64,000 nt of DNA from an uncultured Candidatus Saccharibacteria bacterium (GCA_964642155.1 CAZXNT010000002.1:1801-65800), one strand, 5' to 3'. Positions 3,528 to 51,311 are shown, counted from the stretch's first letter. Translations and numbers: made by a program. Notes: generated by a model not told the origin, from the letters alone.

Positions 3528-3570
3528 TCCCGCCGTCCGTCCGCCGAAAAGTTTTGGGGGCGAAGCCCAA

Positions 3571-26344: not shown

Positions 26345-28171
<1,827 letters not shown>

Positions 28172-28175
28172 AAAT

Positions 28176-28211
28176 ATTACATTTCAACTGCTATCGCAGT
28201 TGAAATGTAAT
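28176..28211. repeat. 36-nt perfect palindrome (attacatttcaactgc tatc gcagttgaaatgtaat), copy A, 5 nt after the stop of the phase-variable gene
   Basis: A 16-bp perfect stem. The identical 35-nt sequence recurs inside fpg at 40270-40304. Confidence 0.9.
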
Positions 28212-28372
28212 AGTAAATTATCCCCTCCAAACTATCCCAAACGATACGGGGCTTTTTATTTTTTTAAAAATGGATTAAGATAAAGGAATTGGTATAAATT
28301 TTGGAGCCATAGGCGAACAAAATTTATTTACCAAACCTTTACCCTGTTAAATAATTTTAAATTTTCTATAAT

Positions 28373-28642
28373 ATGTTTTATTATGTATATGTTTTAAAAT
28401 CATTGAAAGATAATAAATTTTATACGGGTTATACGGAAAATTTAAAATTAAGATTTGAGGAACATCAAAAAGGATATGTATTATCAACAAAAGATAGAAG
28501 ACCGTTTAAATTGGTTTATTATGAATCTTGTTTAGATAAGAAAGATGCTATACACAGAGAGAAATATTTAAAAACATATTTAGGTAAAATGTTTATTAAA
28601 AATCGCCTCAAATCTTATTTAACAGGGTGCTCAATGTTGTAG
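28373..28642 (+). CDS. GIY-YIG nuclease family protein (small, UvrC-N-terminal-like)
   Basis: YVYVLKS...FYTGYTENLKLRFEEH (GIY...YIG...R..H/E). Confidence 0.75.
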   Translation: MFYYVYVLKSLKDNKFYTGYTENLKLRFEEHQKGYVLSTKDRRPFKLVYYESCLDKKDAIHREKYLKTYLGKMFIKNRLKSYLTGCSML

Positions 28643-28700
28643 ATAAATTTATTTCGCTCAACATTGGGTTTCGCTTATAAATTTATACAACATTGGCATG
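28626..28700 (+). repeat. 75-nt duplicated leader element, copy 1 (it includes the last codons of the GIY-YIG gene and the ATG of the PfkB gene)
   Basis: ggtgctcaatgttgtagNNaaatttatttcgctcNNcattgNgtNtNgctNataaatttNaNaacaacattggcATG; about 85% identical to 39894-39968. Confidence 0.85.
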
Positions 28701-29768
28701 TACGATATCATCACAATCGGTACGGCGACGCGGGATGTTTTTTTAACCAGCCCGCTTTTTAAAGTTTTACGCGATAAAAGCCATTTGAAAAAAATCGGGT
28801 TTGCCACCGGTGAAGCGCAATGTTTCGCTTTGGGCGGGAAAATAGAAATCGGCGAGCCGGTGCTTGCCACGGGCGGTGGTGCCACCAATTCCGCGGTAAC
28901 ATTCAGCCGCCAGGGATTAAAAACCGCAACATTGATAAAAATCGGCGAAGACCAGGTCGGCAAGGATATTTTAGAAGAATTAAAAAAAGAGAAAATAGAT
29001 GTTTTAAAACTACAAAATACAAACTATAAACTACAAACTAATAACGGCACTGCTTATTCAACTATTCTTTTGGCGCCCGGCGGCGAAAGAACAATTTTGG
29101 TTTATCGCGGCGCTTCGGAAGATTTAACTTTTAAAGAAATTCCTCTTAGTGAATTAAAATCCAAATGGGTTTATGTTTCGCCGGGCAAAATGCCGCTTGA
29201 AACAATCAATAAAATTTTCAATCATTTCTATAAAAACAAAACTTTTATCGCTTTTAATCCCTCAAAGTATTTTATTGAGATGGGATTAAAAAAATTAAAA
29301 CCGCTCTTAAAAAAAACTAAAGTGTTTATTCTTAATCGCGAGGAAGCGTCTTATTTGACGGGAGTTGATTATCATAAAGAAAAAGAAATTTTCAAAAAAC
29401 TTGATGAGGTGGTTGACGGCATTGCCGTGATGACCGACGGGCCGAATGGCATTTTGGTCTCAGATTGCTGCAATATTTATAAAGCTGGAATTTTTTCCGC
29501 CAGAGGCAGGGGAAAAAAAGCGATTGATCGCACCGGCGCCGGCGACGCTTTTGGCAGCGGATTCGTGGCGGGCTTGATTCAGACGCGGGAAAAATGCAAA
29601 AAAGGATTATGCGGAATTGACAATGTTGAATACGCCATTCGTTTGGGTTCAGCCAACGCCACTTCGGTAATTGAAAAAATCGGCGCGAAAAAAGGAATTA
29701 TTACTAAATTAGAATTTCAGAAGTCAAAACGATGGAAAAATCTGTTAATAAATATTATAAAAACATAA
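28698..29768 (+). CDS. PfkB-family carbohydrate/ribokinase-like kinase
   Basis: Second PfkB signature DRTGAGDAFGSGFVAG. The N-terminal GG motif is ALGGKIEIGEPVLATGGGATN. Confidence 0.8.
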   Translation: MYDIITIGTATRDVFLTSPLFKVLRDKSHLKKIGFATGEAQCFALGGKIEIGEPVLATGGGATNSAVTFSRQGLKTATLIKIGEDQVGKDILEELKKEKIDVLKLQNTNYKLQTNNGTAYSTILLAPGGERTILVYRGASEDLTFKEIPLSELKSKWVYVSPGKMPLETINKIFNHFYKNKTFIAFNPSKYFIEMGLKKLKPLLKKTKVFILNREEASYLTGVDYHKEKEIFKKLDEVVDGIAVMTDGPNGILVSDCCNIYKAGIFSARGRGKKAIDRTGAGDAFGSGFVAGLIQTREKCKKGLCGIDNVEYAIRLGSANATSVIEKIGAKKGIITKLEFQKSKRWKNLLINIIKT

Positions 29769-29775
29769 ATTATTT

Positions 29776-31050
29776 ATGAAATCTTTTGAAAAAATCGCTC
29801 AAATATTGCGTACCGACAAAGATAATATCCGCTTTATAGAAGAGCGGTTTTCGGCCATAACCGGCAAAAAAAATATAATTGACAAAATTGTTGAAGAAAA
29901 CGAAGCGATGATGAAGAGTCGGCTTGATGTTCTTGGCTTAAAAGAAAGCGCGACTGCCAAAGAAATTTATAACGCTTTAATTAGTAAAATTGAAGCGGAT
30001 GATGTTCAATTATTTAAAGTTTTGGGTTCGCCGTTAGTAACAATTTCAAGCGATTGGCAACGGGTTTTGGAAACGGCTCAATCAATAGCCAATAAGCCGA
30101 AAGGTTTTTTTCTTAAAAAAGAAAAAGCAATTGAATTTTTAAAAAATCAGCCGCCGCTGAAAATTCTTAAAACGCTTGGATATAAAGATGTTGGCGCAAT
30201 GGTTCAAAAAGAAAATATTTTTGAAATTTTTAGCGCCTTAAGATTTGTTGAAGGAAGCGATTGGCTCAATAAAGTTTTTTTCAAACAATATGAAAATCTT
30301 AAACCAAGCGATTTTGAAGAAAGAGAAATTGAAGTTTTGGCTTTACCGGAAAGATGGGCGAAAATCGCTCAAGAATTTATCGGGCACAAGCGTCATAATA
30401 TCAGCCATCTAAAAGAGTTGGGATTGATTTATGTTATTCCTTTGTCTTTGGAAATTTCAGGAGAAACTTTAAGAAATTTCGGTTTGATTCTCCATTATTT
30501 TAATGAAGTTCCTTTTTATTCCGACCTTGTTAAAAATTTTAGCGTTGCTGAAAAATCATTCGCAAATAATTTAATATCTTTATTACGCGGCGATGTTCTT
30601 GATGAAAGATTATTGAAATTAGACCCGCCTGCCGGCAAGGCAAATAAATCGCAGTGGCTTATTATCCAAAGATATTTGGCGAAAGATGATGAAAATGATT
30701 GGCGGTTATTTGAGCCGCATTTGAATCCAGAAGCGCTTCACTGGGAAAAAGCCGAGAAAATGTTGGTGAAAGCCGGTGAATCCCTTAATCATTTTTCCAG
30801 CGATATGTCTTTTTGGCAGAATTTGAATTGGGTGGGAGATTATTTCAAAAGCGACACAGGTATTGAAGTTTTGGTAAGTTTTAATTTAATTGATACCACA
30901 ATGTCTTTGGTAAAAGAAAAAGATATGATAAAATATCTGTATCATCACCAGGAAGCGCTTTGGAATAAAATTTTTTCAGAGTATTTTAGCGAAATAGAAA
31001 TGGAAGAAAAAATGAAAGAGAATATAATTAAGGGGTGGTTTCAAATATGA
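29776..31050 (+). CDS. Hypothetical protein
   Basis: 424-aa ORF with a 4-nt ATGA overlap with fba; no recognisable motif. Confidence 0.5.
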   Translation: MKSFEKIAQILRTDKDNIRFIEERFSAITGKKNIIDKIVEENEAMMKSRLDVLGLKESATAKEIYNALISKIEADDVQLFKVLGSPLVTISSDWQRVLETAQSIANKPKGFFLKKEKAIEFLKNQPPLKILKTLGYKDVGAMVQKENIFEIFSALRFVEGSDWLNKVFFKQYENLKPSDFEEREIEVLALPERWAKIAQEFIGHKRHNISHLKELGLIYVIPLSLEISGETLRNFGLILHYFNEVPFYSDLVKNFSVAEKSFANNLISLLRGDVLDERLLKLDPPAGKANKSQWLIIQRYLAKDDENDWRLFEPHLNPEALHWEKAEKMLVKAGESLNHFSSDMSFWQNLNWVGDYFKSDTGIEVLVSFNLIDTTMSLVKEKDMIKYLYHHQEALWNKIFSEYFSEIEMEEKMKENIIKGWFQI

Positions 31051-31922
31051 AAACTTTATATCAAATAATACAAGAAGCGGAACAATCGCGAATCGCTATC
31101 GGGCATTTTAATATTTCAGAATGCGTTGCATTGAAGGGAATTTTTAAAGCGGCTCAGGAATTGAATTTGCCGGTAATTATCGGTCTTTCCGAGGGCGAGC
31201 AAAATTTTATGGGGACAAAACGCGCGGCGTTAATGGTAAAAAGTTTGCGCGAGGAATTTAATTGGCCGATTTTTATCAATTCTGACCATACGAAATCATT
31301 AGAGAAAATAAAAGAAGCGGTTGAAGCCGGATTTGATTCGGTTCATTTTGACGGCGGTAAATTATCTTTTGAAGAAAACATTAAAAAAACAAAAGAAGTA
31401 GTTGAATATGTAAAAAGTGTCAATCCGGATATTTTAGTGGAAGCGGAACTCGGGTATCTGGGCGCCAGTTCAACGATTTTAAAGGAAATTCCCAAAGACG
31501 TCGCGATTAAAGAAGAAGATTTAACAAAGCCGGAACAAGCCGCTCAATTTGTAAAAGAAACAGGCATTGATTTATTGGCGCCGGCAGTCGGCAATATTCA
31601 CGGAATGTTTAAAAACGCGCCTAATCCCCACATTGATTCAGCGAGAATCGGGAAAATAAGAGAATTAGCCGGAGTGCCATTGGTTCTTCATGGCGGTTCG
31701 GGAATTCGCGACGAGGAATTTTTAAAAGCCATTGATGCCGGAATATCAATTATTCATATTAATACGGAAATAAGATTGGCCTGGCGACAGGGGATGGAAA
31801 AAGCGTTGGCGGAAAATCTTGAAGAAATTACGCCTTACAAAATTTTGCCGATAACAATTGAAGAAATTAAAAAAATGATTGAGAAAAGAATGAAATTATT
31901 CAGTAAACTGGACAAACAATAA
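31047..31922 (+). CDS. fba: Class II fructose/tagatose-bisphosphate aldolase
   Basis: IGHFNISE, NSDHTKS, VHFDGG, LVLHGGSG zinc-aldolase motifs. The start overlaps the upstream stop (ATGA). Confidence 0.85.
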   Translation: MKTLYQIIQEAEQSRIAIGHFNISECVALKGIFKAAQELNLPVIIGLSEGEQNFMGTKRAALMVKSLREEFNWPIFINSDHTKSLEKIKEAVEAGFDSVHFDGGKLSFEENIKKTKEVVEYVKSVNPDILVEAELGYLGASSTILKEIPKDVAIKEEDLTKPEQAAQFVKETGIDLLAPAVGNIHGMFKNAPNPHIDSARIGKIRELAGVPLVLHGGSGIRDEEFLKAIDAGISIIHINTEIRLAWRQGMEKALAENLEEITPYKILPITIEEIKKMIEKRMKLFSKLDKQ

Positions 31923-31942
31923 TAAATTAATATAATAAACTT

Positions 31943-32146
31943 ATGATTGAATTAAAACGAAGACAAGGAGAATCAATAAGTGTTTTTTTACACCGTTTTT
32001 CAACTAAAATGAAACAAAGCGGAATTTTGATGGAATCTAAAAGGCGTCGTTATAAAGACCGTCCGGTGAGCAAGGCCAAAATAAAACGTTCAGCAATCCA
32101 TCGGGCGGTAAAACAGAAGGAATTTGAAGCGGCAAAGAAAAGCTGA
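31943..32146 (+). CDS. rpsU: 30S ribosomal protein S21
   Basis: 67 aa, basic, with an LHRFSTKMKQSGIL...KAKIKRSA S21 pattern. Confidence 0.75.
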   Translation: MIELKRRQGESISVFLHRFSTKMKQSGILMESKRRRYKDRPVSKAKIKRSAIHRAVKQKEFEAAKKS

Positions 32147-32160
32147 TAAATTGGAAAGGA

Positions 32161-32625
32161 ATGATTCAACAAAAGATAAAAGAAGATTTAAATATTTTTT
32201 TGAAAGCCGGCAAAAGTTTTGAAGCCGGCGTTTTGCGTTTAATGTTCTCAGTTTTCAAGAATAAAGAAATTGAAAAGCGGGGGAAGGGACAGGAAACAGA
32301 ACTTACAGACGAAGAAATTGTTGACCTCTTAATGAAAGAAGTAAAAAAAAGAAAAGAAGCGGCGGATGTTTATAAGAAGGGTAATAGAGAAGATTTAGCC
32401 GAAAAAGAAATGAAAGAATTGGAAGTTATTAAGAAATATTTACCTAAGGAATTAAGCGCGGAAGAAATTGAAAAAATCGTTGATAAGGCGATTGCGGCAA
32501 CGAGCGCGACAAATATGAAAGATATCGGCAAAGTTATGGCAGAAGCGATGAAAGAGTTGAAAGGCCGAGCCGATGCGTCGGCAGTCGGCGCGATGATTAA
32601 GAAAAAATTAGAGAATGGCAAATAA
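32161..32625 (+). CDS. GatB/YqeY domain protein
   Basis: Size and helical KE-rich sequence pattern with the conserved ..DIGKVM..A... block. Confidence 0.65.
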   Translation: MIQQKIKEDLNIFLKAGKSFEAGVLRLMFSVFKNKEIEKRGKGQETELTDEEIVDLLMKEVKKRKEAADVYKKGNREDLAEKEMKELEVIKKYLPKELSAEEIEKIVDKAIAATSATNMKDIGKVMAEAMKELKGRADASAVGAMIKKKLENGK

Positions 32626-33040
32626 AATTACGGTTGTTAGTTTGGAAAAGCAATTTAAGAAGTTTGAAAAAGATATCAAAAAGGTTGCGTCGGCGATTTT
32701 TAAAATTTTAAACAAGGATAACGTCGCGGTTGATATTTATTTGACAGGCAACGCGCTGATGCGGCGGTTAAATAAAAAATATCGCGGCAAAGACAAAGCC
32801 GCAAATGTTTTAAGTTTTGTGGAGCCGACAAATTTTCCTCATCCGGAAACAAAGGCGCGTTTTTTAGGCGAAATATATCTCAATTTCCAATTTTCTAATT
32901 TCCTAATTTCTCAATTATTAATTCACGCCATTCTTCATTTACTTGGCTATACTCATAAGGGAAAAAGTGATAGAATGAAAATGGAAAAAAAAGAAAACCA
33001 TGTACATCACCTCTTTAGACATAGGAACTTCGCAAATTAA
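32615..33040 (+). CDS. ybeY: rRNA maturation endoribonuclease YbeY
   Basis: HAILHLLGYTH zinc-binding H..LHLLGY(D/T)H motif. Upstream N..Y.G.D..TNVLSF block. Confidence 0.8.
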   Translation: MANKITVVSLEKQFKKFEKDIKKVASAIFKILNKDNVAVDIYLTGNALMRRLNKKYRGKDKAANVLSFVEPTNFPHPETKARFLGEIYLNFQFSNFLISQLLIHAILHLLGYTHKGKSDRMKMEKKENHVHHLFRHRNFAN

Positions 33041-34265
33041 AGCTTTGGTTGCCGAAGCGGGAAAAGGCGGCAAATTATCTTTGATTGCCGCTTTTAAATG
33101 TCCGTCAAGCGGTATTCGCAAAGGGGAAGTAAGCGATATTAACGAATCATCTTTCTCTTTAAAAAGCATTTTTGAAAATTTATTTTCACTTAATAAATCG
33201 GCGTTAAAAAATATTTTTGTGAATATTGGCGGCGCGAACGTTAAATCCCATAATTCAAAAGGGATAGTGGCGGTTTCGCGCGCTGATAATGAAATTTCTC
33301 AAGACGACATTGATAGGGTGATTAAGGCGTCTCAAGCCGTTAAACTATCGCCGAACAGAATGATTATTCATACCGTTACCAGGGAATTTATTATTGATGG
33401 CGTCGGCGACGCGCGGGAGCCGTTGGGAATGTTCGGCGCGCGGTTGGAAGTCAACAGCGCGGTCATAGACGCTCCTTCGCAGAATTATAAAAATATCTCC
33501 AGACTGATTGAAACACTTGGCGGCAAAATAAGCGGATTGATTTACGGGCCTCTGGCGGCTTCCCGTTCAACTCTCGCGAAAATTAAAAAAGATTTAGGCG
33601 CGGTTTTGATTGATATTGGCGGCGGTTCCACCACGATGAGCGTTTATGAAGAGGGAAAACTTTTACATACGGCCGGTTTTCCAATCGGCTCCGGTCATAT
33701 CACCAATGATTTAGCGATAGGCCTTAAATGTTCGGTTAAATTAGCGGAAGTATTTAAAATTTTTTTCGGAAATGCTTTAGCCAAAGAAATTTCCAGCAAA
33801 GAAAAAATATCGCCCAATGACATTGAGGGAAAAATAGGTATGGAAATTTCCGAACTTGACAAAAATTTTAAATCCGTTGTTTCTCGCCGGGAAGTCGCGG
33901 AAATTATAGAAAGCCGGTTGACGGAAATTTTTGAATTTGTTAATAATGAGTTAAAATTAATCGGTAAGAACGGCCGGTTGCCGGCAGGGGTAATACTTTG
34001 CGGTGGCGGAGCAAAAATGTCGTCAATCGTTGATCTTGTCAAAGAAGAATTAAAACTTCCAGCTGAGATCGGATTTCCCGATACCGGTGAAATAGAAATT
34101 ATTGACCAAAATGTCAGCAATGAAATTAATGACCCGGAATTCGCCGTTTCTTTGGGACTGCTTTTACTGGCGAAAGACCAATGGATGAGGAATAACGAGT
34201 GGCCGATTTCCGGCAAGTTTTCTTTTATAAATTTAAAAAAGATTTTTAAATATTTTACGCCTTAA
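33000..34265 (+). CDS. ftsA: Cell division protein FtsA
   Basis: Actin-like ATPase motifs LDIGTSQIKALV, IDIGGGSTT, and a C-terminal amphipathic tail. Confidence 0.9.
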   Translation: MYITSLDIGTSQIKALVAEAGKGGKLSLIAAFKCPSSGIRKGEVSDINESSFSLKSIFENLFSLNKSALKNIFVNIGGANVKSHNSKGIVAVSRADNEISQDDIDRVIKASQAVKLSPNRMIIHTVTREFIIDGVGDAREPLGMFGARLEVNSAVIDAPSQNYKNISRLIETLGGKISGLIYGPLAASRSTLAKIKKDLGAVLIDIGGGSTTMSVYEEGKLLHTAGFPIGSGHITNDLAIGLKCSVKLAEVFKIFFGNALAKEISSKEKISPNDIEGKIGMEISELDKNFKSVVSRREVAEIIESRLTEIFEFVNNELKLIGKNGRLPAGVILCGGGAKMSSIVDLVKEELKLPAEIGFPDTGEIEIIDQNVSNEINDPEFAVSLGLLLLAKDQWMRNNEWPISGKFSFINLKKIFKYFTP

Positions 34266-34277
34266 ATTCCAAAAATA

Positions 34278-35441
34278 ATGGCAAAAAGATCTAAAAAACC
34301 AAAAAATATCAATCTGGCGAAAATAAGAATCGTCGGCGTCGGGGGAGCCGGCGGTAATGCCGTGACAAGAATGAGCGATGAATTTCCCCGTGGCACGGAT
34401 TCAGTTGTTATCAATACTGATGCTCAGGATTTGAATTATTGTATTTCCAGAAAGAAAATTTGTATTGGAAAAAATCTTACTAAGGGTTTGGGAACCGGAA
34501 TGAACCCGGATTTAGGCCGCCAAGCAGCCGAAGAAAACCAAGCGGAAATTGCCGAAGCGCTAAGCGGAGCGGATATGGTTTTTTTAACAGCCGGATTCGG
34601 CGGCGGAACCGGAACCGGCGCTTTACCGGTGGTCGCGGAAATCGCCAAAGATTTGGGAATTTTAACCGTTGCCATAGTCACCAAACCGTTTGTTTTTGAA
34701 GGATTTGAACGTCGAAGAATAGCTGAAGAAGGAATAGCGAGAATAAAAGATAAGGTTGACACTTTAATCACCATTCCCAATGACCGGATATTTTCGGTAA
34801 TCAATCAAAATACTCCTTTAATAAAAGCTTTTGAAGCGGTTGATGAGATTCTTAAAAATTCCGTTATTGGGGTTGCTGATTTAATTGCCACTGCCGGGAT
34901 TATCAACGTTGATTTTGCCGATGTAAAAGCCATAATTCAAAACGCCGGTTCGGCGATTATCGGCATCGGCTATTCCAGTGGAGCCGAACGCGCCACAACA
35001 GCCGCTCATTTGGCGATTAATTCTCCTCTGTTGGAAATTTCCATTGACGGAGCGAAAAGAATTTTATTCAGCGTTTCCGGTCATCGCGATTTAAAGATGA
35101 GTGAGATAAACGATGTGGCGAGAATGATTGCCGAACACGCCAATCCTTCGGCAAAAATAATTTTCGGCGCCCATCATGACCGCAAACTTAAAAAGGGGCA
35201 ATTGAAAGTGACCTTAATAGCTGCGGATTTTAACGGAGATGTGGTAAAATCTTCAAACAATGGAATTTTACCAAATCTTTTTATTTCAGAAGAAATTGTT
35301 CCGAAGATTGAAACGCCAATGATAAGCAGTGCCAAAGACGTAAAAAAAAAAGAAAAAGAAGAAATGATAAACGAAGAAAAAAACGGAAATTGGGACGACG
35401 TGTATGATATTCCGGCATTTTTAAGGAAGAAAAAGAAATAA
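34278..35441 (+). CDS. ftsZ: Cell division GTPase FtsZ
   Basis: GVGGAGGNAV and tubulin signature GGGTGTGA. Confidence 0.95.
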   Translation: MAKRSKKPKNINLAKIRIVGVGGAGGNAVTRMSDEFPRGTDSVVINTDAQDLNYCISRKKICIGKNLTKGLGTGMNPDLGRQAAEENQAEIAEALSGADMVFLTAGFGGGTGTGALPVVAEIAKDLGILTVAIVTKPFVFEGFERRRIAEEGIARIKDKVDTLITIPNDRIFSVINQNTPLIKAFEAVDEILKNSVIGVADLIATAGIINVDFADVKAIIQNAGSAIIGIGYSSGAERATTAAHLAINSPLLEISIDGAKRILFSVSGHRDLKMSEINDVARMIAEHANPSAKIIFGAHHDRKLKKGQLKVTLIAADFNGDVVKSSNNGILPNLFISEEIVPKIETPMISSAKDVKKKEKEEMINEEKNGNWDDVYDIPAFLRKKKK

Positions 35442-35442
35442 T

Positions 35443-38043
35443 ATGTTTAAATTAATCCGCAAACGTAACGGTCAAACAGCGCCGTTTAAAATTGAAAAAA
35501 TAATCAATGCCGTTTACAGGGCTTCTGTTGCGGTTGGAGAGCCGAATTGGCAATTGGCGACGGAATTCTCAAAGGAAGTGTTTCGTCGGTTGCAGAAAAA
35601 AATAAAAAAAGGCGCGATTCCCGCAGTTGAAGAAGTTCAAGATGTTGTGGAACAAGTTTTGATTGAAAAAGTCCATCCTCGTATTGCCAAGGCTTATATT
35701 TTATACCGCCAGCATCGTGCGGAAATAAGAAAAGAAAAAGAACAAGTTTTGAATAAGGAGGAGGTAGATGAAGTTGATAAAAAATTTGACATTAACGCCT
35801 TGAGAGTTTTGGCGTCGCGTTATTTGAGAAAAAGCGATGATGGAAAAATAATTGAATCGCCCAAACAGCTTTTTGAAAGAGTGGCGACGCACACGGCGAT
35901 TTCTTCTCTTTTTTACGATTCCAAGATTTACAAAAAAGCGGGCGGAAATCCGGAACGCCGTTTTGAAGAATTTGAACCGATAAAATTCGCCGGCAAATTT
36001 TCAATAGGTAAATACAAACTTAACCAATTTCATTTGGAAGGAATGAAAAGGATGTATGACCGATTGGCAAAAGAGAAAAAAATAAAAATTTCTTGGCAGG
36101 GTTTTTTAGAGCTTTTTAAAAAAGGATATTTTAACAAGTATGAATCTGAAATTGACGCTTATTATAATTTAATGGTAGAGCGCCGTTTTATGCCCAACAC
36201 TCCGGCTTTGGCGAATTTTGGCAATTATTTCGGAATGGGTTCGGCTTGTTTCGTTCTCGGCATAGAAGATTCCATAGAATCAATAATGGATTCTTTGAAA
36301 GCCGCGGCGATTATTTTCAAGTCTGGCGGCGGAGTGGGATATAATTTTTCTCATTTGAGACCTGAAAATGATTTTATTAAAACCACTGGCGGCGCGTCTT
36401 CTGGTCCAATCAGTTTTATGTCTATGTATGACAATATGACGGATGTGATTAAGCAAGGCGGAATCAGGCGAGGCGCCAATATGGGAATTTTAAACAGCGA
36501 CCATCCGGATATTGATAAATTCATTAAAGCTAAAGAAGGGAATAAAGCTTTGCGGAATTTTAACATTTCAATAATGGTTAAGCCGGAATTCTGGCAATGT
36601 TTAAAAGAAGGCAAAATGTATCCTTTAATAAATCCGAGAAACGGAAAAGTTGTTAAAGAAATAGACCCGAAACAGCTTTTTGATATGATTACTTACCAAG
36701 TTTGGGAATCGGCTGAACCGGGAATTTTGTTTTATGACCGAATCAATGAATACAATCCTTTTGCGAAATCATTGGGGCCGATTGAATGTACTAATCCTTG
36801 CGGTGAAGTTTTACTTTATCCGTTTGAATCCTGTAATCTCGGCTCAATAAATATTTGGGAATATTTAAAGAAAAATGGCGGCAAAAAACCGCATTTTGAC
36901 TGGCAGGCGCTTGAACGCGACGTTAAAATCGCCACAAGATTTTTGGATAATGTGGTGGATATTAATAAATATCCTTCGCCGGAAATTGAAGAAATGAGTT
37001 TAAACACGCGCAAACTTGGGTTGGGCGTAATGGGCGTTGCCGATTTGTTTTTTGAACTTGAAATTCCTTACGCCTCCAAACAGTGTCTAGAATTTATGGA
37101 ACGTTTAATGGAATTCATCAATTATCACGCTAAGCTTGCTTCAGTTGAACTTTCGAAAGCGCGCGGTCGAATGCCATATTTTGATAAGTCATTTTATAAA
37201 GAAGGGAAATTGCCGTTTGCCGGATTTAAAGACAAAAAATCTTGGCATCTTGATTGGAATGGAATCGTGAAAAAAATAAAAAAATACGGCATCAGAAACG
37301 GATTTAACACCGTTATCGCGCCGACCGGTTCAATCTCAATGATTGCCGGAACTTCCAGCGGCATTGAACCGATATTCAGTTTGGTTTTTGAAAAAAGCGT
37401 GGCAATCGGAAATTTTTATTATGTTGACCCGGTGTTTGAAGAAAGAATGAGAAAAGAAGGATTAATGGATGAAGACTTAATAAAAGATGCCTCGGCGTTG
37501 AACGGTAGCATTAAAAACATCACTTATATTCCGGCGAACATTAAAAAGATTTTTTTAACTGCCATGGATATTTCTCCAGTTGACCACATTAAAGTTTTGG
37601 CGGCATTTCAAAAATGGACTGATTCGTCAATTTCAAAAACGAATAATTTTCCGTCGGACGCCTCGGTTGATGATATTAAAAAAGCTTATTTATTGGCTTA
37701 TGAATTGGGGTGCAAGGGCGTAACTGTTTACCGCGATAAATCTTTGAAAAATCAGGTTTTAATCGGCGGGAGCATCAAAAAGAAATTAAAAGAAAAAGAT
37801 TCTTCACAGCATTTAACACTTGTTAAAAAAGATGAAAAAACAAAGGGGATGGCTGTTTATGCCGAAGCTGGAGCTAATATTTCTTTGACTCCGTCCAGTA
37901 GCTTGGGATTGTCGCCGGCTGATAACGGCGATGAGCCGCAAGGAAAAAATTCTTTGAAAATGTGCCCTTCTTGCAATGTCGCGCTCGCGAAGCAGGAAGG
38001 ATGCATCAAGTGCCCGAGTTGCGGTTGGGGACTATGCGGTTAA
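35443..38043 (+). CDS. nrdJ: Class II (adenosylcobalamin-dependent) ribonucleotide reductase with an N-terminal ATP-cone and a C-terminal zinc ribbon
   Basis: ATP-cone LIRKRNGQTAPFKIEKI. Active-site TNPCGE...ESCNLGSIN. C-terminal CPSC...CIKCPSCG. Confidence 0.85.
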   Translation: MFKLIRKRNGQTAPFKIEKIINAVYRASVAVGEPNWQLATEFSKEVFRRLQKKIKKGAIPAVEEVQDVVEQVLIEKVHPRIAKAYILYRQHRAEIRKEKEQVLNKEEVDEVDKKFDINALRVLASRYLRKSDDGKIIESPKQLFERVATHTAISSLFYDSKIYKKAGGNPERRFEEFEPIKFAGKFSIGKYKLNQFHLEGMKRMYDRLAKEKKIKISWQGFLELFKKGYFNKYESEIDAYYNLMVERRFMPNTPALANFGNYFGMGSACFVLGIEDSIESIMDSLKAAAIIFKSGGGVGYNFSHLRPENDFIKTTGGASSGPISFMSMYDNMTDVIKQGGIRRGANMGILNSDHPDIDKFIKAKEGNKALRNFNISIMVKPEFWQCLKEGKMYPLINPRNGKVVKEIDPKQLFDMITYQVWESAEPGILFYDRINEYNPFAKSLGPIECTNPCGEVLLYPFESCNLGSINIWEYLKKNGGKKPHFDWQALERDVKIATRFLDNVVDINKYPSPEIEEMSLNTRKLGLGVMGVADLFFELEIPYASKQCLEFMERLMEFINYHAKLASVELSKARGRMPYFDKSFYKEGKLPFAGFKDKKSWHLDWNGIVKKIKKYGIRNGFNTVIAPTGSISMIAGTSSGIEPIFSLVFEKSVAIGNFYYVDPVFEERMRKEGLMDEDLIKDASALNGSIKNITYIPANIKKIFLTAMDISPVDHIKVLAAFQKWTDSSISKTNNFPSDASVDDIKKAYLLAYELGCKGVTVYRDKSLKNQVLIGGSIKKKLKEKDSSQHLTLVKKDEKTKGMAVYAEAGANISLTPSSSLGLSPADNGDEPQGKNSLKMCPSCNVALAKQEGCIKCPSCGWGLCG

Positions 38044-38048
38044 TCTTT

Positions 38049-39752
38049 ATGCATCTTTTACAAGAAGACATCAAAAAAATAGTGGAATCTACGGGGTTGG
38101 TGAATGAGCATGATTATCAGGTAGCTGAAGAAGAAGCGGTTCGCAGTAACCGTTTGGTTTTGGATATTCTTATCGGTAAGGGATTTATTGATGAAAAATA
38201 TCTCGCCGGAAGCATCGCTAAATTTTTTAATGTTCCGCAAATTAATCTTTCCACAGTTGATTTTTCTCAAGACGTTTTAAAATTAATTCCCGAAGCTTTT
38301 GCTAAAAGCCGCGGCGTGATTCTTTTTGAATTTAATCCGGAAGGAAAACGGGGGAAATTGGCGATGCTTGACCCGGAAGATTTTTATACCATTAATTATC
38401 TTCGGACATTGCTTAACGCCTGGTTGGATATTTATTTAATGTCGCAATCCGATTTAAAATTCGGCCTTAGACAGTATAAAAAGAAAATAAACGAGGAATT
38501 TGGAAAAGTCATTGAAGAAAATCTTAAAGAATCCATAGGGATTGCCGGAGCGCTGGATATGTCCAAAATGATTGAAGCGGTGCCGATAGTCAATATCGTC
38601 AATACGATTATTGAACACGCCGCCACTTTGGGGGCGTCAGACATTCATTTTGAACCCTTTGAAAAAAAATTAACGGTGCGTTATCGCATAGACGGGATTT
38701 TGCAGGAAATTTTAAATTTGCCGCCGGTGATAGCGCCGATTTTAGTGGCGAGGATAAAAGTTATGGCGAATTTGCAGATAGACATTCATAACGCGCCGCA
38801 AGACGGTCGTTTCAGATTTCCCATAGAAGACCAATTTGTTGACGTTCGCGTTTCCGTAATTCCGACTTTTCACGGAGAAAAAGGCGAAATGCGCTTATTA
38901 AAAGGTTCTTTACGGCCTTTGACACTTTATGAATTGGGATTTTCCCAAAATGATTTGCCGAGAATAGAAATAGCGATTAAAAAACCACGCGGAATGATTT
39001 TAGTGACCGGTCCGACGGGGCATGGGAAAACAACGACACTTTATGCCATTTTGGGTATTCTGAATACGCCGAAAGTGAATATTACTTCGGTTGAAGACCC
39101 GATTGAATATGACATCCCGGGCGTTAATCAGACGCAGGTTAATGTCAAAGCCGGTCTCACGTTTGCTTCAGGATTGCGTTCTTTGGTGAGACAAAATCCG
39201 GACATTATTATGGTTGGTGAAATTCGCGATTCGGAAACCGCGGATATCGCTATAAACGCCGCTTTAACCGGCCATCGTTTGCTTTCAACGCTTCATACCA
39301 ATGACGCTCCGACCGCCGTCCCTCGGTTGATTGATTTGGGCGTGCCGCCATTTTTGATTTCTTCAACGCTTAACGTGGTGATTGCCCAGCGCTTGGTGCG
39401 CAGAATTTGCAACGCTTGCGTTCGGTCAATAAAACCAAGCAAAGAATTATTAAACGTGTTACAAAGCCATTTAAAAAGCATGGGCGTAAAAGCGAAAATG
39501 CCGGAAACGATTTATCAGGGTGAGGGATGCGGTATCTGCGGTTTTTCCGGCTATCGCGGACAAATAGGGCTTTTTGAAATTATTTATGTTTCGGATGCTA
39601 TCCGCGAATTGGTTATTGCCAAAGCGTCAACCAATATTATTAAAGACAAAGCGCGCGCCGAAGGAATGAAACTTATGTTTGAAGACGGGCTATCAAAAAT
39701 CGAATCCGGCCAAACTACTTTGGAGGAAGTGTTGAGAGTGGCGGTGGAGTAA
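38049..39752 (+). CDS. pilB: Type II secretion / type IV pilus assembly ATPase (GspE/PilB family)
   Basis: Walker A GPTGHGKTTT, Asp-box, Walker B, and a tetracysteine CNACV...CGICG. I chose the ATG at 38049, just after the nrdJ stop, over the 37962 extension. Confidence 0.85.
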   Translation: MHLLQEDIKKIVESTGLVNEHDYQVAEEEAVRSNRLVLDILIGKGFIDEKYLAGSIAKFFNVPQINLSTVDFSQDVLKLIPEAFAKSRGVILFEFNPEGKRGKLAMLDPEDFYTINYLRTLLNAWLDIYLMSQSDLKFGLRQYKKKINEEFGKVIEENLKESIGIAGALDMSKMIEAVPIVNIVNTIIEHAATLGASDIHFEPFEKKLTVRYRIDGILQEILNLPPVIAPILVARIKVMANLQIDIHNAPQDGRFRFPIEDQFVDVRVSVIPTFHGEKGEMRLLKGSLRPLTLYELGFSQNDLPRIEIAIKKPRGMILVTGPTGHGKTTTLYAILGILNTPKVNITSVEDPIEYDIPGVNQTQVNVKAGLTFASGLRSLVRQNPDIIMVGEIRDSETADIAINAALTGHRLLSTLHTNDAPTAVPRLIDLGVPPFLISSTLNVVIAQRLVRRICNACVRSIKPSKELLNVLQSHLKSMGVKAKMPETIYQGEGCGICGFSGYRGQIGLFEIIYVSDAIRELVIAKASTNIIKDKARAEGMKLMFEDGLSKIESGQTTLEEVLRVAVE

Positions 39753-39893
39753 AGGGCTTTGTTCCCCCGCGTTGGCGGGGGATTACAAAACCTTTACCCC
39801 GCCCTCTAAGCATATGGAATTAAAACAAGATAATTTATTAAGATTAAATTATGATTTCTGAATTAGTCTTTGTTTAACAGGCATAGAGGGCGG

Positions 39894-39968
39894 GGTGCTC
39901 AATGTTGTAGTGAAATTTATTTCGCTCGGCATTGAGTCTTGCTCATAAATTTCAACAACATTGGCATG
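39894..39968 (+). repeat. 75-nt duplicated leader element, copy 2 (it includes the fpg ATG)
   Basis: See copy 1 (28626-28700). It is preceded by a long-range inverted repeat ccccgccctctaagc / gcatagagggcgggg. Confidence 0.85.
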
Positions 39969-40913
39969 CCGGAGCTTCCAGAAGTAGAAACAATCGTCAA
40001 TGACTTGAGAAAAAAAATCGTCGATAGAAAAATTACGGGCGTTTGGTTTGACGCGCCAAAACTTATTAAAAAACCGAAACCGAAAGAATTAGAAAAGCAA
40101 ATAAAAGGATTGAAAATTATTGACATCAAACGTCGCGGGAAAAACATCCTTATTTATTTAACTACAAACTATAAATTACGAACTACAAACTATTTATTAC
40201 TGATTCATCAAAAGATGACGGGGCATCTTTTGTACGGGAAATGGCGAGTAAAATGTGATAATTCCAAAGTTACATTTCAACTGCTATCGCAGTTGAAATG
40301 TAATAAAAAACGAAAAGTTGAAAGTTTAATCAAGGGCGTTTTGGAAGAAAAAGTTAATAATTACATTCATTTTATTCTTTATCTTGATAACGGTTGGCAA
40401 GTCGGGCTTTCGGATTTGAGAAAATTCGCCAAAATTTTATTCGGCAAGAAAGAAGAAATTGAAAATTTGGCGGAATTAAAAAATTTGGGACCGGAGCCGT
40501 TAGACAAAAGTTTCAAGTTTATAAAGTTTGTAAAGTTAATAAAGTTTCAAAAGCGCAAAATCAAACAAGTTTTGATGGACCAAAATGTTATTGCCGGCAT
40601 TGGCAATATTTATTCCGATGAGATTTTATGGCAGGCGAAGATACATCCGTTCAAGCTGGCGGATGAATTAACAAATACTGAATTAGAAAAAATTTATTCA
40701 GCCACAAAAGAAATTTTAAAAAAAGCCGTAAAATTGCGCGGAACTTCAATCAGCGATTTTCGCGACGCTTTTGGCAAAAGCGGAGGGTATGTTAAAATAT
40801 TAAAAATTTACCGGCGCGAAGGCGAACTTTGTCAACGTTGCGGAACAATTATAAAAAGAGTTAAGATGGGAGGAAGAAGCGCTCATTATTGTCCCAAATG
40901 CCAAAAGATATAA
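39966..40913 (+). CDS. fpg: Formamidopyrimidine-DNA glycosylase (Fpg/MutM) carrying two in-frame repeat-derived insertions
   Basis: MPELPEVE catalytic N-terminus, H2TH, AGIGNIY, and the zinc finger CQRCG...CPKCQ. Inserts at 40161-40192 (TTNYKLRTTNY) and about 40240-40330. Confidence 0.9.
   Translation: MPELPEVETIVNDLRKKIVDRKITGVWFDAPKLIKKPKPKELEKQIKGLKIIDIKRRGKNILIYLTTNYKLRTTNYLLLIHQKMTGHLLYGKWRVKCDNSKVTFQLLSQLKCNKKRKVESLIKGVLEEKVNNYIHFILYLDNGWQVGLSDLRKFAKILFGKKEEIENLAELKNLGPEPLDKSFKFIKFVKLIKFQKRKIKQVLMDQNVIAGIGNIYSDEILWQAKIHPFKLADELTNTELEKIYSATKEILKKAVKLRGTSISDFRDAFGKSGGYVKILKIYRREGELCQRCGTIIKRVKMGGRSAHYCPKCQKI
40270..40304. repeat. 35-nt perfect palindrome, copy B, inside the fpg coding sequence (encodes VTFQLLSQLKCN)
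   Basis: ttacatttcaactgctatcgcagttgaaatgtaat is identical to 28177-28211. It lies within a roughly 30-aa insertion relative to other Fpg proteins. Confidence 0.9.
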
Positions 40914-43905: not shown

Positions 43906-44289
43906 ATGCGTTTACTTGGTATCAACATCCCGGACAATAAAAAAATTAAAATAGCCTTAACCCATGTTTACGGTATAGGCCGCTTTTCGGCTATTAATAT
44001 TTTAACGTTAGCCGGAGTTGATCCGGAAAAAAAGACGAAAGATTTAACCTCTGAAGAAACGAATAAAATCAAACAATTGATTGAAAAAAATCATAAGATA
44101 GAAGGCGAATTGCGCCAAGTTATCAAGGGTAATATTGTGAGGCTTAAAGAAATAAAATGCTACAGAGGCTCAAGACATGAAAGAAAATTGCCAGTTAGAG
44201 GGCAAAGAACAAAAACAAATTCTCGGACAGTCCGCGGTAATGTTAGAAAAACAGTCGGCAGTGGAAAAAGAAAAGTTGATTTGAAATAA
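43906..44289 (+). CDS. rpsM: 30S ribosomal protein S13
   Basis: MRLLGINIPDNKKIKIALTHVYGIGR... Confidence 0.92.
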   Translation: MRLLGINIPDNKKIKIALTHVYGIGRFSAINILTLAGVDPEKKTKDLTSEETNKIKQLIEKNHKIEGELRQVIKGNIVRLKEIKCYRGSRHERKLPVRGQRTKTNSRTVRGNVRKTVGSGKRKVDLK

Positions 44290-44429
44290 TCCCTCACCCT
44301 TCAAAGATTAAATATTATTAAACTTTGATAATGAGGGAATAAATTAAATTTTGTTAAAATAAATATAATTCAAAGAATCAATATTTTTCATTTTTTTAAA
44401 TGAAAAATAAAATCTTTGAAGGGTGAGGG
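44290..44429. repeat. TIR-flanked intergenic element, copy 1 (between rpsM and rpsK)
   Basis: Begins tccctcacccttcaaagat immediately after TAA, and ends atctttgaagggtgaggg immediately before ATG. Confidence 0.9.
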
Positions 44430-44894
44430 ATGGGACAAAAAAAAGTTATAGAAAAAACTGAAAAAGATATTTTAGAAGAAGGCAAGAAATTGGAAGAAAC
44501 GATGGCAAAAAAATCTTCCGTTAAAAAAAGCGGACAAGTGGTTGGGAAAATAGGCGTTGGCGTGATTTACGTAAATTTCAGCTATAATAATACCATGCTT
44601 ACGGCAACCGATAAAAAAGGCAATGTGGTTGCGTGGATTTCCGCCGGCTCTTTGGGTTTTTCGGGGCCTAAAAAAGCCACGCCATTCGCGGCTTCAAAAA
44701 TGGTGGCAGCTGTGTCCGAAAAATTAAAAAAAATCGGTTTTTCCGAAATTGAAGTGGTGATGAAAGGAGTTGGTAGTGCTAGAGATTCCGCCCTGAAATC
44801 TTTAGCAGGTCAAGGATTTAGTATTTTATCAATAAAAGACGTGACGCCAATTCCGCATAATGGTCCGCGTCCGCCGAAAAAAAGAAGAGTATAA
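44430..44894 (+). CDS. rpsK: 30S ribosomal protein S11, with an N-terminal KE-rich extension
   Basis: NNTMLTATDKKGNVVAWISAGSLGF... Confidence 0.9.
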   Translation: MGQKKVIEKTEKDILEEGKKLEETMAKKSSVKKSGQVVGKIGVGVIYVNFSYNNTMLTATDKKGNVVAWISAGSLGFSGPKKATPFAASKMVAAVSEKLKKIGFSEIEVVMKGVGSARDSALKSLAGQGFSILSIKDVTPIPHNGPRPPKKRRV

Positions 44895-48467: not shown

Positions 48468-51311
48468 ATGACCAAACAAGAAGGACAGCAGCAAATAACG
48501 AGGTTAATTGAGAAATACGAAAAAGCCAGCCAGGCTGGTAAAATAAAAAATTATACAGAAGAAGACACTAAAAAAGATTTTATTCTACCGCTTTTTCATT
48601 TATTGGGTTGGGATGTTCATAATAGAAATGAAGTTACTTCTGAAGAAAATATTTCCGGTAAACGGGTTGATTATGGTTTTTATTTGAATGGTCGGCCGAG
48701 ATTTTATCTTGAGGCGAAAAAATTCTCTGTCGATATAAATAATCCTGATTCCGCCAATCAAGCGGTAAGTTATTCGTGGAATAAGGGTATTACCTGGGCG
48801 GTATTAACTAATTTTGAGGATTTAAAAATTTTTAATGCGGAAAATATTAAAAGTTCTCTTGCGGATAAGCGGTTTAAAACATTCCATTATACCGAATATA
48901 TCGCACGCTTTGACGAGCTTATCTTACTTTCTAAATCCGCTTTCGAAGGGGATTTATTGAATAAAGAGGCCGCGAAATCAGGCAAAATTTTTGAGCGCAT
49001 TCCGGTAAGCGACACACTTTATAAAGATTTGGATGAATGCCGTGATATACTTACAAAATCTTTAATCCAGTGTAATCCGCAACTTAAAAAAGACCCCGAT
49101 CTTTTAGATGAAGGCGTGCAAAAACTTCTTGATAGGTTAATTTTTATGAGGGTTGCGGAAGATAGGGGTGTGGAGCCGAATATTTTAAAAGTCATTGTAC
49201 GGGAGGCAAGCGTAAATCGTAAAGGCCATATGTCGCTTTATCAAGCGATGGCACAAAAATTTCGAGAGCTTGATAATATCTATAATTCAAATTTATTTTC
49301 CAAACATCCATTTGAAGAATGGGATGAATATGGCGGAGCTACAGAAAAAATTATTGAAAAACTTTACGGCAAGAAGGGATATTATGAATATGATTTTAAA
49401 ATAATGCCTGCGGATGTTTTGGGTACGGTATATGAACATTATCTCGCTCATCGGCTTTCAAAATCTAGAAAGGGAATAACAATTGATAAAGATGCCGGCA
49501 AAAGAAAAGAACAGGGAATTTATTATACTCCTTCATTTATAGTTGATTATATTGTTCGCCACGCGCTCCAACCAGTTTTAGATAAATGTAAGACAATTGA
49601 TCAATTATTAAAAATAAAAGTTTTAGATCCTGCTTGTGGCTCAGGGTCATTTCTTATCAAAGCGCTTGATGTATTTACGGAAAAATACAAAGAACTTGGC
49701 TATAAAGGCGATGAAATCACTAAATTTATAATTCTCGCCCAAAATCTTTATGGCGTTGATTTTGACAAAAAAGCCGTTGAGATTGCGCGTCTTAATCTTT
49801 GTATTAATTCTCTTGATCGTAAAACAAAACTGCCATATCTTACGGATCATATCAAATGTGGCAATTCTTTAATTTCAGGAACCGACGAAGAACTTAAAAA
49901 AGCATTTGGAAAAGATTATCGCGATAAAAAGCCGTTTAATTGGCAAGAAGAATTTTCAGATGTTTTCAAACAGGGCGGTTTTGATGTGATTATCGGCAAT
50001 CCGCCATATCTTAAAGAGCTTGATAATAAAGAATTGTTTCAAGAAATTAGGAAAAGTGATTTCGGTAAATATTATCAAGGGAAAATGGATTTTTGGTATT
50101 TTTTTCTACACAGATCAATCGAAATTTTAAAAGACGGCGGAATAATGGCTTTTATTACAAACAGTTATTTTTTGAAAAGCGCCGGCGCGACAAAATTAAT
50201 AGATCGCCTACAAAATGAAATGGTTTTATTAAGAGCCGTTGATTTTCAAGATATTAGTGTTTTTGAAGATGTTAGCGGAAGACATCTGATACATATTTGG
50301 GAAAAAATAAAAGATAAAAATAACACGATTACAACATATATTAAGATAGATAAGAATTCGTTCAATGGGACTATTGATGACACCAAATACATAGAATTGC
50401 CATATTCGGAAGTTATAAAAAATTCGTCAATTAATTTTGAAACAAATATTCAGACAAGCAATGAAAATAGTTTATTATTAGGGAATTTATATGATGTTTC
50501 GCAGGGTGTAGTTGAGGCAACAGATAAAATAAGTAAAAAAATGTCGTTGAACATAAAGGATAAAGAACTAAAATCTGGCGATGGTGTTTTTGTATTATCA
50601 GGGGCAGAATTAAAAGAATTAAATTTAAATGAAAAAGAAAAATCAGTGATCAAAAAATATCTCAATACAAATGATATTAAAAAATATCGTATTAATTTTA
50701 ATAATGAATATCTTATTTATTCTGATAAAGAAACAAAAAGCAAAATTGCTGATGAGGGATACCCACACATTAAATCCCATTTGGATAAAATGGGGCAGTT
50801 TATAACGTCGTCAAATGCGCCATATGGTTTGCATCGTCCACGAGATAATAAATATTTTAAAGAACCAAAACTTATTTGTAAGGGTATGTTTTTATCTCCG
50901 GAATTCTGTTTTGACGATGAAAAATATTATGTTGGGTTTTCATTTTCAGTGATTATTCAAAAAAATAAAGATTATGATTTGAAATATTTATTGGGATTAC
51001 TTAATTCCAGTTTTGGGAGAAATTGGTTTAATATTAATGGCAAAAAAAGAGGTGTTGGTGTAGATATTGGGGTTGCAGTGTTTAGAAATTTTCCGGTGTA
51101 TAAAGCGAACAAAGAGCAACAAAATCAGTTAATTAATTTGGTAAATAATATACTTTCTCTTAATAAAGAAATTCATAAATTAGCTGAAAATTCTAACAAA
51201 TATAATTCTATAAAATCCGAAATAGATAAAACCGACAAAGAAATAGACGAAAAAGTTTATAAATTATACGGTTTGACGGGGGAGGAGATTAAAATTGTTG
51301 AAAGTTTATGA
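48468..51311 (+). CDS. Type IIG restriction-modification enzyme (N-terminal PD-(D/E)xK nuclease plus gamma-class N6-adenine methyltransferase plus a target-recognition region; Eco57I/MmeI-like)
   Basis: N-terminal ..EEDTKKDFILPLFHLLGW..GKRVDY..YLEAKK (D...EAK nuclease). Methyltransferase motif X TPSFIVDYIV, motif I LDPACGSGSFL, motif IV GNPPY. About 350 aa of C-terminal recognition region. Confidence 0.8.
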   Translation: MTKQEGQQQITRLIEKYEKASQAGKIKNYTEEDTKKDFILPLFHLLGWDVHNRNEVTSEENISGKRVDYGFYLNGRPRFYLEAKKFSVDINNPDSANQAVSYSWNKGITWAVLTNFEDLKIFNAENIKSSLADKRFKTFHYTEYIARFDELILLSKSAFEGDLLNKEAAKSGKIFERIPVSDTLYKDLDECRDILTKSLIQCNPQLKKDPDLLDEGVQKLLDRLIFMRVAEDRGVEPNILKVIVREASVNRKGHMSLYQAMAQKFRELDNIYNSNLFSKHPFEEWDEYGGATEKIIEKLYGKKGYYEYDFKIMPADVLGTVYEHYLAHRLSKSRKGITIDKDAGKRKEQGIYYTPSFIVDYIVRHALQPVLDKCKTIDQLLKIKVLDPACGSGSFLIKALDVFTEKYKELGYKGDEITKFIILAQNLYGVDFDKKAVEIARLNLCINSLDRKTKLPYLTDHIKCGNSLISGTDEELKKAFGKDYRDKKPFNWQEEFSDVFKQGGFDVIIGNPPYLKELDNKELFQEIRKSDFGKYYQGKMDFWYFFLHRSIEILKDGGIMAFITNSYFLKSAGATKLIDRLQNEMVLLRAVDFQDISVFEDVSGRHLIHIWEKIKDKNNTITTYIKIDKNSFNGTIDDTKYIELPYSEVIKNSSINFETNIQTSNENSLLLGNLYDVSQGVVEATDKISKKMSLNIKDKELKSGDGVFVLSGAELKELNLNEKEKSVIKKYLNTNDIKKYRINFNNEYLIYSDKETKSKIADEGYPHIKSHLDKMGQFITSSNAPYGLHRPRDNKYFKEPKLICKGMFLSPEFCFDDEKYYVGFSFSVIIQKNKDYDLKYLLGLLNSSFGRNWFNINGKKRGVGVDIGVAVFRNFPVYKANKEQQNQLINLVNNILSLNKEIHKLAENSNKYNSIKSEIDKTDKEIDEKVYKLYGLTGEEIKIVESL

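Follow-up and report, generated by a model that had tools for sequence, protein, structure and literature searches.

A 64,000-nucleotide stretch of DNA assigned to an uncultured Candidatus Saccharibacteria bacterium (GCA_964642155.1, CAZXNT010000002.1:1801-65800; here called the window, with positions counted from its first letter) carries the same 35-mer, TTACATTTCAACTGCTATCGCAGTTGAAATGTAAT, at two sites, one between genes and one in frame inside fpg. The two sites are probably copies of a very short, nonautonomous palindromic mobile repeat that is specific to a Wolfebacteria-like clade of Patescibacteria. The element occupies many unrelated AT-rich places in compact genomes, either tiny intergenic spacers or coding sequence. 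At least eight distinct contexts, comprising five short intergenic spacers and three genes (fpg, murE, and ksgA), were found in several metagenomes and metagenome-assembled genomes (MAGs) of Wolfebacteria-like Patescibacteria, with 33 to 36 of 36 positions matching the consensus.

The 35-mer matched exactly at 28177-28211 and at 40270-40304, as had been noted, and 100 dinucleotide-preserving shuffles gave a mean of 0.00 matches, even when three mismatches were allowed. The conserved unit is 36 nt, (A/G)TTACATTTCAACTGC-TATC-GCAGTTGAAATGTAAT, and can be split more finely into (A/G)TTA-CATTTCAACTGC-TATC-GCAGTTGAAATG-TAAT, in which the ends (A/G)TTA and TAAT are common to all copies. Its first base is A at the intergenic site (site 1) and G in fpg (site 2). 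The window copies and their host genes are as follows.

28176-28211, plus strand: intergenic copy, ATTACATTTCAACTGC-TATC-GCAGTTGAAATGTAAT, 36/36 to the family consensus.
28175-28191 and 28196-28212: arms of the intergenic copy, 100% complementary, 16 bp, or 17 bp with one extra flanking pair.
40269-40304, plus strand: in-frame fpg copy, GTTACATTTC...GTAAT, translated as VTFQLLSQLKCN (Fpg residues 102-113), 35/36 to the consensus.
26345-28171, plus strand: open reading frame (ORF) of 608 aa with no Pfam domain, with the intergenic copy in its 3' untranslated region.
39966-40913, plus strand: fpg/mutM, 315 aa, with the Pfam domains Fapy_DNA_glyco, H2TH, and zf-FPG and with PDB sequence matches.

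The intergenic copy begins 4 nt past the TAA stop codon (28169-28171) of the 608-aa ORF. This ORF had been called phase variable, and the label fits its (GA)20.5 dinucleotide tract (26375-26415) near the 5' end, which would be compatible with slipped-strand phase variation. The placement of the second copy in frame within fpg also held. This Fpg retains PELPEV at its N terminus, its H2TH domain, and all four of its zinc-finger cysteines, in columns that are invariant in the homologue alignment (A1). Thus, with the catalytic and zinc-finger residues intact, fpg looks functional from its sequence.

The element had been described as a perfect palindrome, which proved incorrect because the reverse strand of the 35-mer matches with two to three mismatches. 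The arms, written TACATTTCAACTGC ... GCAGTTGAAATGTA, form 16 bp at site 1 and 15 bp at site 2 around an asymmetric, nonpalindromic 4-nt loop, TATC. As RNA, the fpg segment was predicted to fold into a hairpin of -22.6 kcal/mol (z-score, -6.7), and the minimum-free-energy fold of the 111 nt surrounding site 1 (-29.4 kcal/mol; z-score, -6.7) includes the same hairpin. The G+C content of the window was 29 to 40% in 4-kb bins. When the window was scanned with Rfam, the sole match at the gathering threshold was a tRNA; the element itself matched no Rfam family, and nothing credible was obtained around either window copy at E values up to 5. A role as a transcription terminator was considered and rejected. 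A consensus scan flagged the hairpin at site 1 on the minus strand only, where no gene ends, and the plus-strand tail is not T-rich.

In Fpg, the segment that follows the H-x-x-M-x-G block has 39 aa in the window protein (KW...EEKV) versus 12 aa in Lactococcus lactis Fpg, lengths that were read by eye from the sequences, as HMMER left this part unaligned. A segment of roughly 30 aa had been described here as absent from other Fpg proteins. The extra length is real; however, it is composite, with only 10 to 12 aa attributable to the element and the remaining excess partly belonging to a clade-specific, length-variable beta-hairpin loop that is itself present in all listed homologues from the Candidate Phyla Radiation (CPR). 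Among the 92 of 120 homologues in which it could be delimited, most have a loop of 8, 13, or 14 aa, and the two carriers have one of 26 aa. The most parsimonious gain in Fpg, judged from these loop lengths, would be 12 aa (36 nt). Only one other cluster among the 120 best homologues carried the segment, namely, P0004, which is 72% identical and belongs to the same clade; its fpg copy is a visibly decayed version of the same palindrome (33/36). The absence of the segment from unrelated lineages was therefore borne out among these homologues, and the suggested surface-loop location agreed with structural modeling. The AlphaFold2 model of the window Fpg had a mean predicted local distance difference test (pLDDT) score of 80, and Foldseek aligned it to MutM/Fpg crystal structures with template modeling scores of 0.80 to 0.87. 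In this model, residues 98-115 are coil, with a pLDDT of <50 at residues 101-111, between strands 93-97 and 116-120, so that the insert is modeled as a low-confidence loop between two strands. A separate 11-aa insert in Fpg, TTNYKLRTTNY (40160-40200), originates from a heptanucleotide array and not from the hairpin.

All genic copies, in fpg, murE, and ksgA, lie in the same orientation and the same frame and read (I/V)TFQLLSQLKCN. The only open frame of the six is ATT ACA TTT CAA CTG CTA TCG CAG TTG AAA TGT AAT, and each of the other five contains TGA, TAA, or TAG. A copy can therefore persist inside a gene in one orientation and frame only, and the frame shared by the three genes is as expected from survivorship, with no special insertion mechanism needed. 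The genic carriers are as follows.

fpg: the window and P0004/L002.
murE: L001, L009, L019, and P0138 (decayed).
ksgA: L016 (VTSQLLSRLKCN) and L008 (LTLLVRSSIQCN).

For MurE, 37 of the 41 best homologues are without the element. These element-free proteins mostly read ...(T)EFEI-NN-E(N/K)FEMP-LIGEFNVYN with constant spacing, and the carriers read ...EFEI-TFQLLSQLKC-NNIKIEMP.... At the DNA level, the empty sites are GAA ATA AAT AAT (L020) and GAA ATC AAT GAT (L022), and the filled site is GAA ATT [ACA...TGT] AAT AAT, a net gain of 30 nt (+10 aa) between native Ile and Asn codons. Since the net gain looks like 30 nt in murE and, by parsimony, 36 nt in fpg, the boundaries of the element are uncertain by about 3 nt on each side. 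The filled and empty murE sites fit a 28-nt core (CATTTC...GAAATG) placed at the TA in the middle of an ATTAAT-like target, with duplication of that TA, and they fit a 36-nt unit joined via 3-nt microhomologies equally well. The element lies at a beta-hairpin turn in both Fpg and MurE. In KsgA, it lies in an unmapped stretch directly after the conserved KVDSAIIKL motif.

The wider search that had been proposed for the 35-mer and its variants yielded the at least eight contexts through two pattern scans and subsequent rescans. A search of one genome per GTDB species (185,579 species) for 12-nt arms around an unconstrained loop gave one further locus, L001, with an identical 36-mer inside the gene for a 473-aa MurE ligase (ITFQLLSQLKCN) in the same orientation and frame. 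A looser pattern was applied to JGI metagenomes and returned 13 loci. The true matches among them were murE in two lineages (L009 being the second), the P0004 fpg (L002/L012/L013), and three new intergenic sites. The four others were unrelated. Three of these (L011, L017, and L018) were coding-sequence coincidences, and the fourth (L015), read from its flank, was a different hairpin beside a tRNA-like 3' end. A third murE lineage, L019, was reached via protein homology. Mismatch-tolerant rescans of all fetched DNA added further copies, which are listed here after the intergenic sites from the metagenomes.

L008/L010: intergenic copy, 10 nt upstream of the ksgA start.
L014: intergenic copy, 2 nt past the stop codon of a DUF5671 ORF.
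L016: intergenic copy in the opposite orientation, between the rpe stop and the transketolase start.
L008, 2192-2227: intergenic copy, 33/36.
L016, 1284-1319: in-frame copy in ksgA, VTSQLLSRLKCN, 33/36.
L008, 3607-3642: relic at the same ksgA position, LTLLVRSSIQCN, 24/36.

Overall, identity to the consensus ranges from 36/36 down to 24/36 in the relic. The intergenic copies lie 1 to 29 nt from a stop codon or 10 to 15 nt from a start codon, and they run both with and against transcription. There are two copies in the 64-kb window, three in the 5.4 kb of L008, and two in the 13.5 kb of L016. No match to the element was found in viral contigs, and a phmmer search with the 30-aa segment around the insert gave 0 matches in a representative library of 1.84 billion proteins, in which representatives at 50% clustering rarely carry the element. 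Named homologues of Fpg and MurE are from Wolfebacteria, Paceibacterota, or Patescibacteria. The contig holding L001 (CAYOSD010000036.1) is titled "uncultured Candidatus Saccharibacteria"; this label is probably generic or wrong, since most of the named close MurE homologues are from Wolfebacteria or the Patescibacteria group.

Several copies are in decay. In the L002 fpg copy, a C>A and a T>A change break two arm pairs and an A>G change leaves a G-U wobble, with conservative effects on the peptide (L>M twice). Copy 2 of L008 and the ksgA relic show further decay, likewise noncompensating, and the P0138 MurE reads VTLHLLSQMQCN. Because the changes in the decayed copies do not compensate one another, nothing maintains those hairpins.

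If the element is a mobile repeat, its insertion would be catalyzed in trans by some enzyme. It might enter either as the 28-nt core at a TA with TA duplication, the behavior of IS630/Tc1-type MITEs (miniature transposable elements with inverted repeats), or as the 36-nt unit via microhomology. Insertions into genes in other frames or orientations would be lost because the protein would be truncated. The surviving insertions would add 30 to 36 nt, a multiple of three, so that the reading frame would be kept. The element would then be transcribed within the host mRNA, fold as a stable hairpin, and be translated through when genic. At L008, a 205-aa ORF (2239-2856) with PaaX_M/Cas2-like and winged-helix regions lies between two same-orientation copies of the 36-mer (33/36 and 36/36; region 2192-2921), and this ORF and its two flanking copies are absent from the syntenic helicase-ksgA spacer of L016 (1877-1906). 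It is possible that this arrangement is a composite unit or that the ORF encodes a protein partner of the element.

A number of results weigh against a mobile repeat. The copy number is low for a selfish repeat: no further degenerate copies beyond the two were present in the 64 kb, and the 185,579-species collection held a lone exact-core copy, so that the MAG holding L001 has one such copy. Window ORFs of 90 aa or more showed no transposase or RAYT/Y1_Tnp Pfam domain, and the fetched loci likewise held no transposase, RAYT, or insertion sequence (IS) with matching termini. As for a parent IS, neither the window nor the 183 kb of fetched loci contained a solitary arm, with up to two to three mismatches allowed. 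Neither an unambiguous target-site duplication nor any other flanking direct repeat common to the contexts was found. In addition, the same site is filled in orthologues that are 52 to 78% identical, in three genes. The three murE lineages (L001, L009, and L019) carry a 36/36 element in genes with 76 to 79% nucleotide identity, in which the frequency of identical codons given the same amino acid is 0.63 to 0.71; at the gene-wide rate, such identity has a probability of about 5e-5 to 2e-4 per pair. Between the fpg copies, 32 of 36 positions are identical, compared with 74% gene-wide (P about 0.02). In a neighbor-joining tree of murE, the carriers do not form a supported clade (support, 12%), and a single-gain phylogeny for them was therefore not adopted. 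A single ancient insertion followed by drift does not explain the filling of the same sites with element sequences that look younger than their flanks. Sequence constraint, recombination that spread the element laterally, or insertion more than once at a favored site could possibly account for this recurrence. The original prediction was of a selfish element analogous to Rickettsia palindromic elements (RPEs). An RPE-like in-frame palindrome is supported by at least eight contexts, which include in-frame copies in three genes, by close orthologues without the segment, and by the loop position in Fpg; selfish in the sense of proliferating is not, given the low copy number and the failure to find a mobilizing enzyme or a target duplication.

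The strict conservation could also be explained if the 36-mer were a functional cis-acting site, that is, an operator or an RNA hairpin bound by a protein (for example, a PaaX-like winged-helix/Cas2-like protein), that is kept by selection. The invariance of the whole sequence, including the loop, across lineages whose host genes have diverged by 21 to 24% in nucleotides would suit such a site, as would the low copy number, the adjacency of intergenic copies to gene starts and stops, and the L008 ORF lying between two same-orientation copies in a unit that is missing from the L016 spacer. We nevertheless regard this as unlikely, since a regulatory site has no cause to be a discrete 30- to 36-nt insert in the surface loops of three housekeeping enzymes that are unrelated to one another; in several copies, decay proceeds without compensation, the intergenic copies are found both with and against the direction of transcription, and no PaaX-like gene was found in the window. 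Also doubtful, although it would account for the 36/36 murE identity and the same-site occupancy in three genes, is the idea that the 36-mer is the substrate of a sequence-specific maintenance or homing system in CPR bacteria, with a trans-acting protein (PaaX/Cas2-like or a freestanding nuclease) reinstalling the hairpin at ATTAAT-like sites. If true, this would make the element the smallest known prokaryotic mobile unit (28-nt core), and its protein partner would be of a new kind.

Identical copies at identical sites of diverged orthologues would be expected, too, if the element spread mainly between orthologous sites, by homologous recombination or transformation among co-occurring Wolfebacteria or by nuclease-driven homing. 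The filled sites coincide among the carriers of murE (three lineages, 36/36), among those of fpg (35/36 and 33/36), and among those of ksgA (33/36 and 24/36), with equally close orthologues empty. The L009 murE is nearer to the empty L022 (82% aa identity) than to the carriers L001 and L019 (78% and 76%), and by hand count, the 51 nt flanking the element match at 49/51 between L001 and L009 versus 45/51 between L001 and L022. Freestanding nuclease genes are also present in the window (GIY-YIG, 28373-28642; HNH, 75-827). However, the eight contexts share nothing beyond an ATTAAT-like site, the L019 copy and both fpg copies have flanks that have diverged as much as the remainder of the gene, no GIY-YIG gene lies near the element at any other locus, and a single old insertion with losses is compatible with the poorly supported murE tree; we consider this explanation improbable. 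A one-off intragenomic event, in which ectopic gene conversion or duplication involved the two window loci, possibly tied to the cassette of a second repeat (D14) with its GIY-YIG gene and involving no mobile family, draws on the position of both copies within 100 to 450 nt of D14 copies (28625-28700 and 39893-39968), a co-location with a roughly estimated chance of about 5e-4 per repeat family considered. It is very unlikely, as it is contradicted by the 36-mer in six further contexts of other genomes with no D14 or GIY-YIG gene nearby, and the two window loci differ in how the hairpin and D14 are ordered and spaced. Finally, a short, palindromic, exactly repeated sequence might be suspected of being an assembly or library artifact (an adapter or a chimeric junction), which is scarcely credible in view of the diverged flanks in NCBI, JGI, and ENA assemblies of different samples, the decayed versions, and the intact reading frames. 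The mobile palindromic repeat thus remains the preferred reading.

According to the summary of Ogata et al. 2000 given in PMC10969869, RPEs are about 150 bp long and form ten families, with 44 insertions in Rickettsia conorii, nearly half of them inside ORFs. The 36-mer resembles them as a palindromic repeat that lies in intergenic DNA as well as in frame in unrelated housekeeping ORFs, where it adds a short extra peptide at a tolerant surface position, and neither RPEs nor the 36-nt element has coding capacity for its own mobility. Compared by description and not by sequence, the element differs in its length of 36 nt (30 to 36 nt added), its peptide of 10 to 12 aa, its single family, its two copies per 64 kb, and its occurrence in another phylum. 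The element behaves functionally like an RPE but is not a member of that family.

Repetitive extragenic palindromic sequences (REPs) are usually G+C-rich. They occur in many copies outside genes, and one end bears a GTAG or CGTC tag in most of them (PMC3733652). Like REPs, which are described there as imperfect palindromes of 20 to 40 nt that form a stem-loop, are transcribed with their neighbors, and often lie just past stop codons, the 36-mer has the size and the stem-loop (15- to 16-bp arms, 4-nt loop, about -22 kcal/mol). In contrast to REPs, it is AT-rich, lacks a GTAG or CGTC tag (its ends are ATTA and TAAT), is low-copy, and is also genic in three genes. The one gene found between two copies is PaaX/Cas2-like and not a RAYT, and the window showed no Y1/RAYT gene.

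IS630/Tc1-type MITEs, such as the Correia elements of Neisseria, duplicate a TA at the target. Known MITEs are typically 50 to 500 bp, with terminal inverted repeats around an internal region, and the element is far smaller than any MITE known to us. Overviews are available in PMC10969869 and PMC2229807. The 36-mer shares with MITEs a structure of terminal inverted repeats only, AT-rich targets, and a putatively co-transcribed hairpin, and its murE sites would be compatible with TA duplication. It differs in that two 12- to 16-nt arms and a 4-nt loop make up the entire element and in that no parent IS was found. In organelles, mitochondrial double-hairpin and GC-cluster elements are known as in-frame palindromic elements. 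PARCELs (palindromic amphipathic repeat coding elements), repeats of about 100 nt, build repeat proteins and are not single loop insertions (PMC2996958). These, too, are short palindromic mobile sequences that persist in protein genes by an open frame; however, their hosts and sizes are different, and they have no sequence relationship with the 36-mer. The element is best classified as a new case, unusually small and low-copy, of the known class of palindromic nonautonomous mobile repeats that can be tolerated in frame. Among the results listed by full-text literature searches, no paper dealt with palindromic repeats or MITEs in CPR bacteria.

The phenomenon known from RPEs, in which mobile palindromes are tolerated in essential genes as extra surface loops, would thus be extended to the CPR. 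With its small size and strict conservation, the element offers a tractable handle on DNA mobilization where no recognizable transposase adjoins the repeat. The 36-mer may be used as a lineage marker, and it calls for caution in the annotation and alignment of CPR proteins.

Other repeats were noticed in the same DNA. D14 is a second two-copy element (28329-28700 and 39784-39968), with a conserved block, AAACCTTTACCC, followed by a stem that exists in two fully compensatory versions, CCCTGTTAAATA/TATTTAACAGGG and CCCCGCCCTCTA/TAGAGGGCGGGG. The stem contains a GIY-YIG nuclease ORF (28373-28642) at site 1 and a 76-nt AT-rich hairpin at site 2. After the stem, a structured leader, GGGTGCTCAATGTTGTAG...CAACATTGGC, is 87% identical between the copies and runs right up to the ATG, which is that of pfkB (28698) in one copy and that of fpg (39966) in the other. 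D14, which had no Rfam match, looks like a cassette that carries a nuclease and provides a 5' leader, in an autonomous and a nonautonomous version. Neither the GIY-YIG gene, 160 nt downstream of site 1, nor the D14 leader was accepted as a partner of the 36-mer, as neither is near the element at other loci; their proximity to the window copies is probably coincidental.

Heptanucleotide arrays of CTAYAAA occur in frame in pfkB (29007-29040) and in fpg (40160-40200), where they encode LQNTNYKLQTNN and TTNYKLRTTNY, respectively. Fpg homologues have related inserts at the position of this array (SKILN, RLTTN, KLKAKS, and others), and the L001 MurE contains KSKILNPKSK from a GGATTTA array. Intergenic 7-nt arrays lie at 15380, 15509, 18519, 18715, 43672, 43715, 46737, and 46783. 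Other recurrent in-frame inserts in CPR proteins, seen in the Fpg alignment (A1) and in the L008 ksgA (2932-3855), include ITLR(L/M)(A/P)QG(D/Y)GE(R/P)SRT, SFGKAQDKQKVIV, KVYPHTKR...GVG, and ...TSSL(R/W)GRQ..., the last of which is common to Fpg P0100 and the L008 KsgA. These sequences suggest that several further repeat families colonize loops of CPR proteins. The variety of short in-frame inserts in Fpg, PfkB, and KsgA likewise suggests that the length-variable loops of CPR proteins arise in part through colonization by short repeats.

An element of about 150 nt is present in four copies (44280-44432, 55193-55347, 56160-56338, and 61086-61238), which lie in spacers of the ribosomal-protein operon (S13/S11, L23/L2, L2/S19, and L6/L18). 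One end reads CCCTCACCCTTCAAAGAT, and the other carries the complement, ATCTTTGAAGGGTGAGGG, followed directly by ATG. The purine-rich 3' arm, immediately 5' of the start codon, was read as Shine-Dalgarno-like, and the 5' arm can pair with it. The window also holds defense and toxin genes, namely, an HNH endonuclease (75-827), an AAA_21/AbiEii-like ATPase (831-3527), a 947-aa Eco57I/MmeI-like fused restriction-modification enzyme (48468-51311), and a HipA-like kinase (51308-52294).

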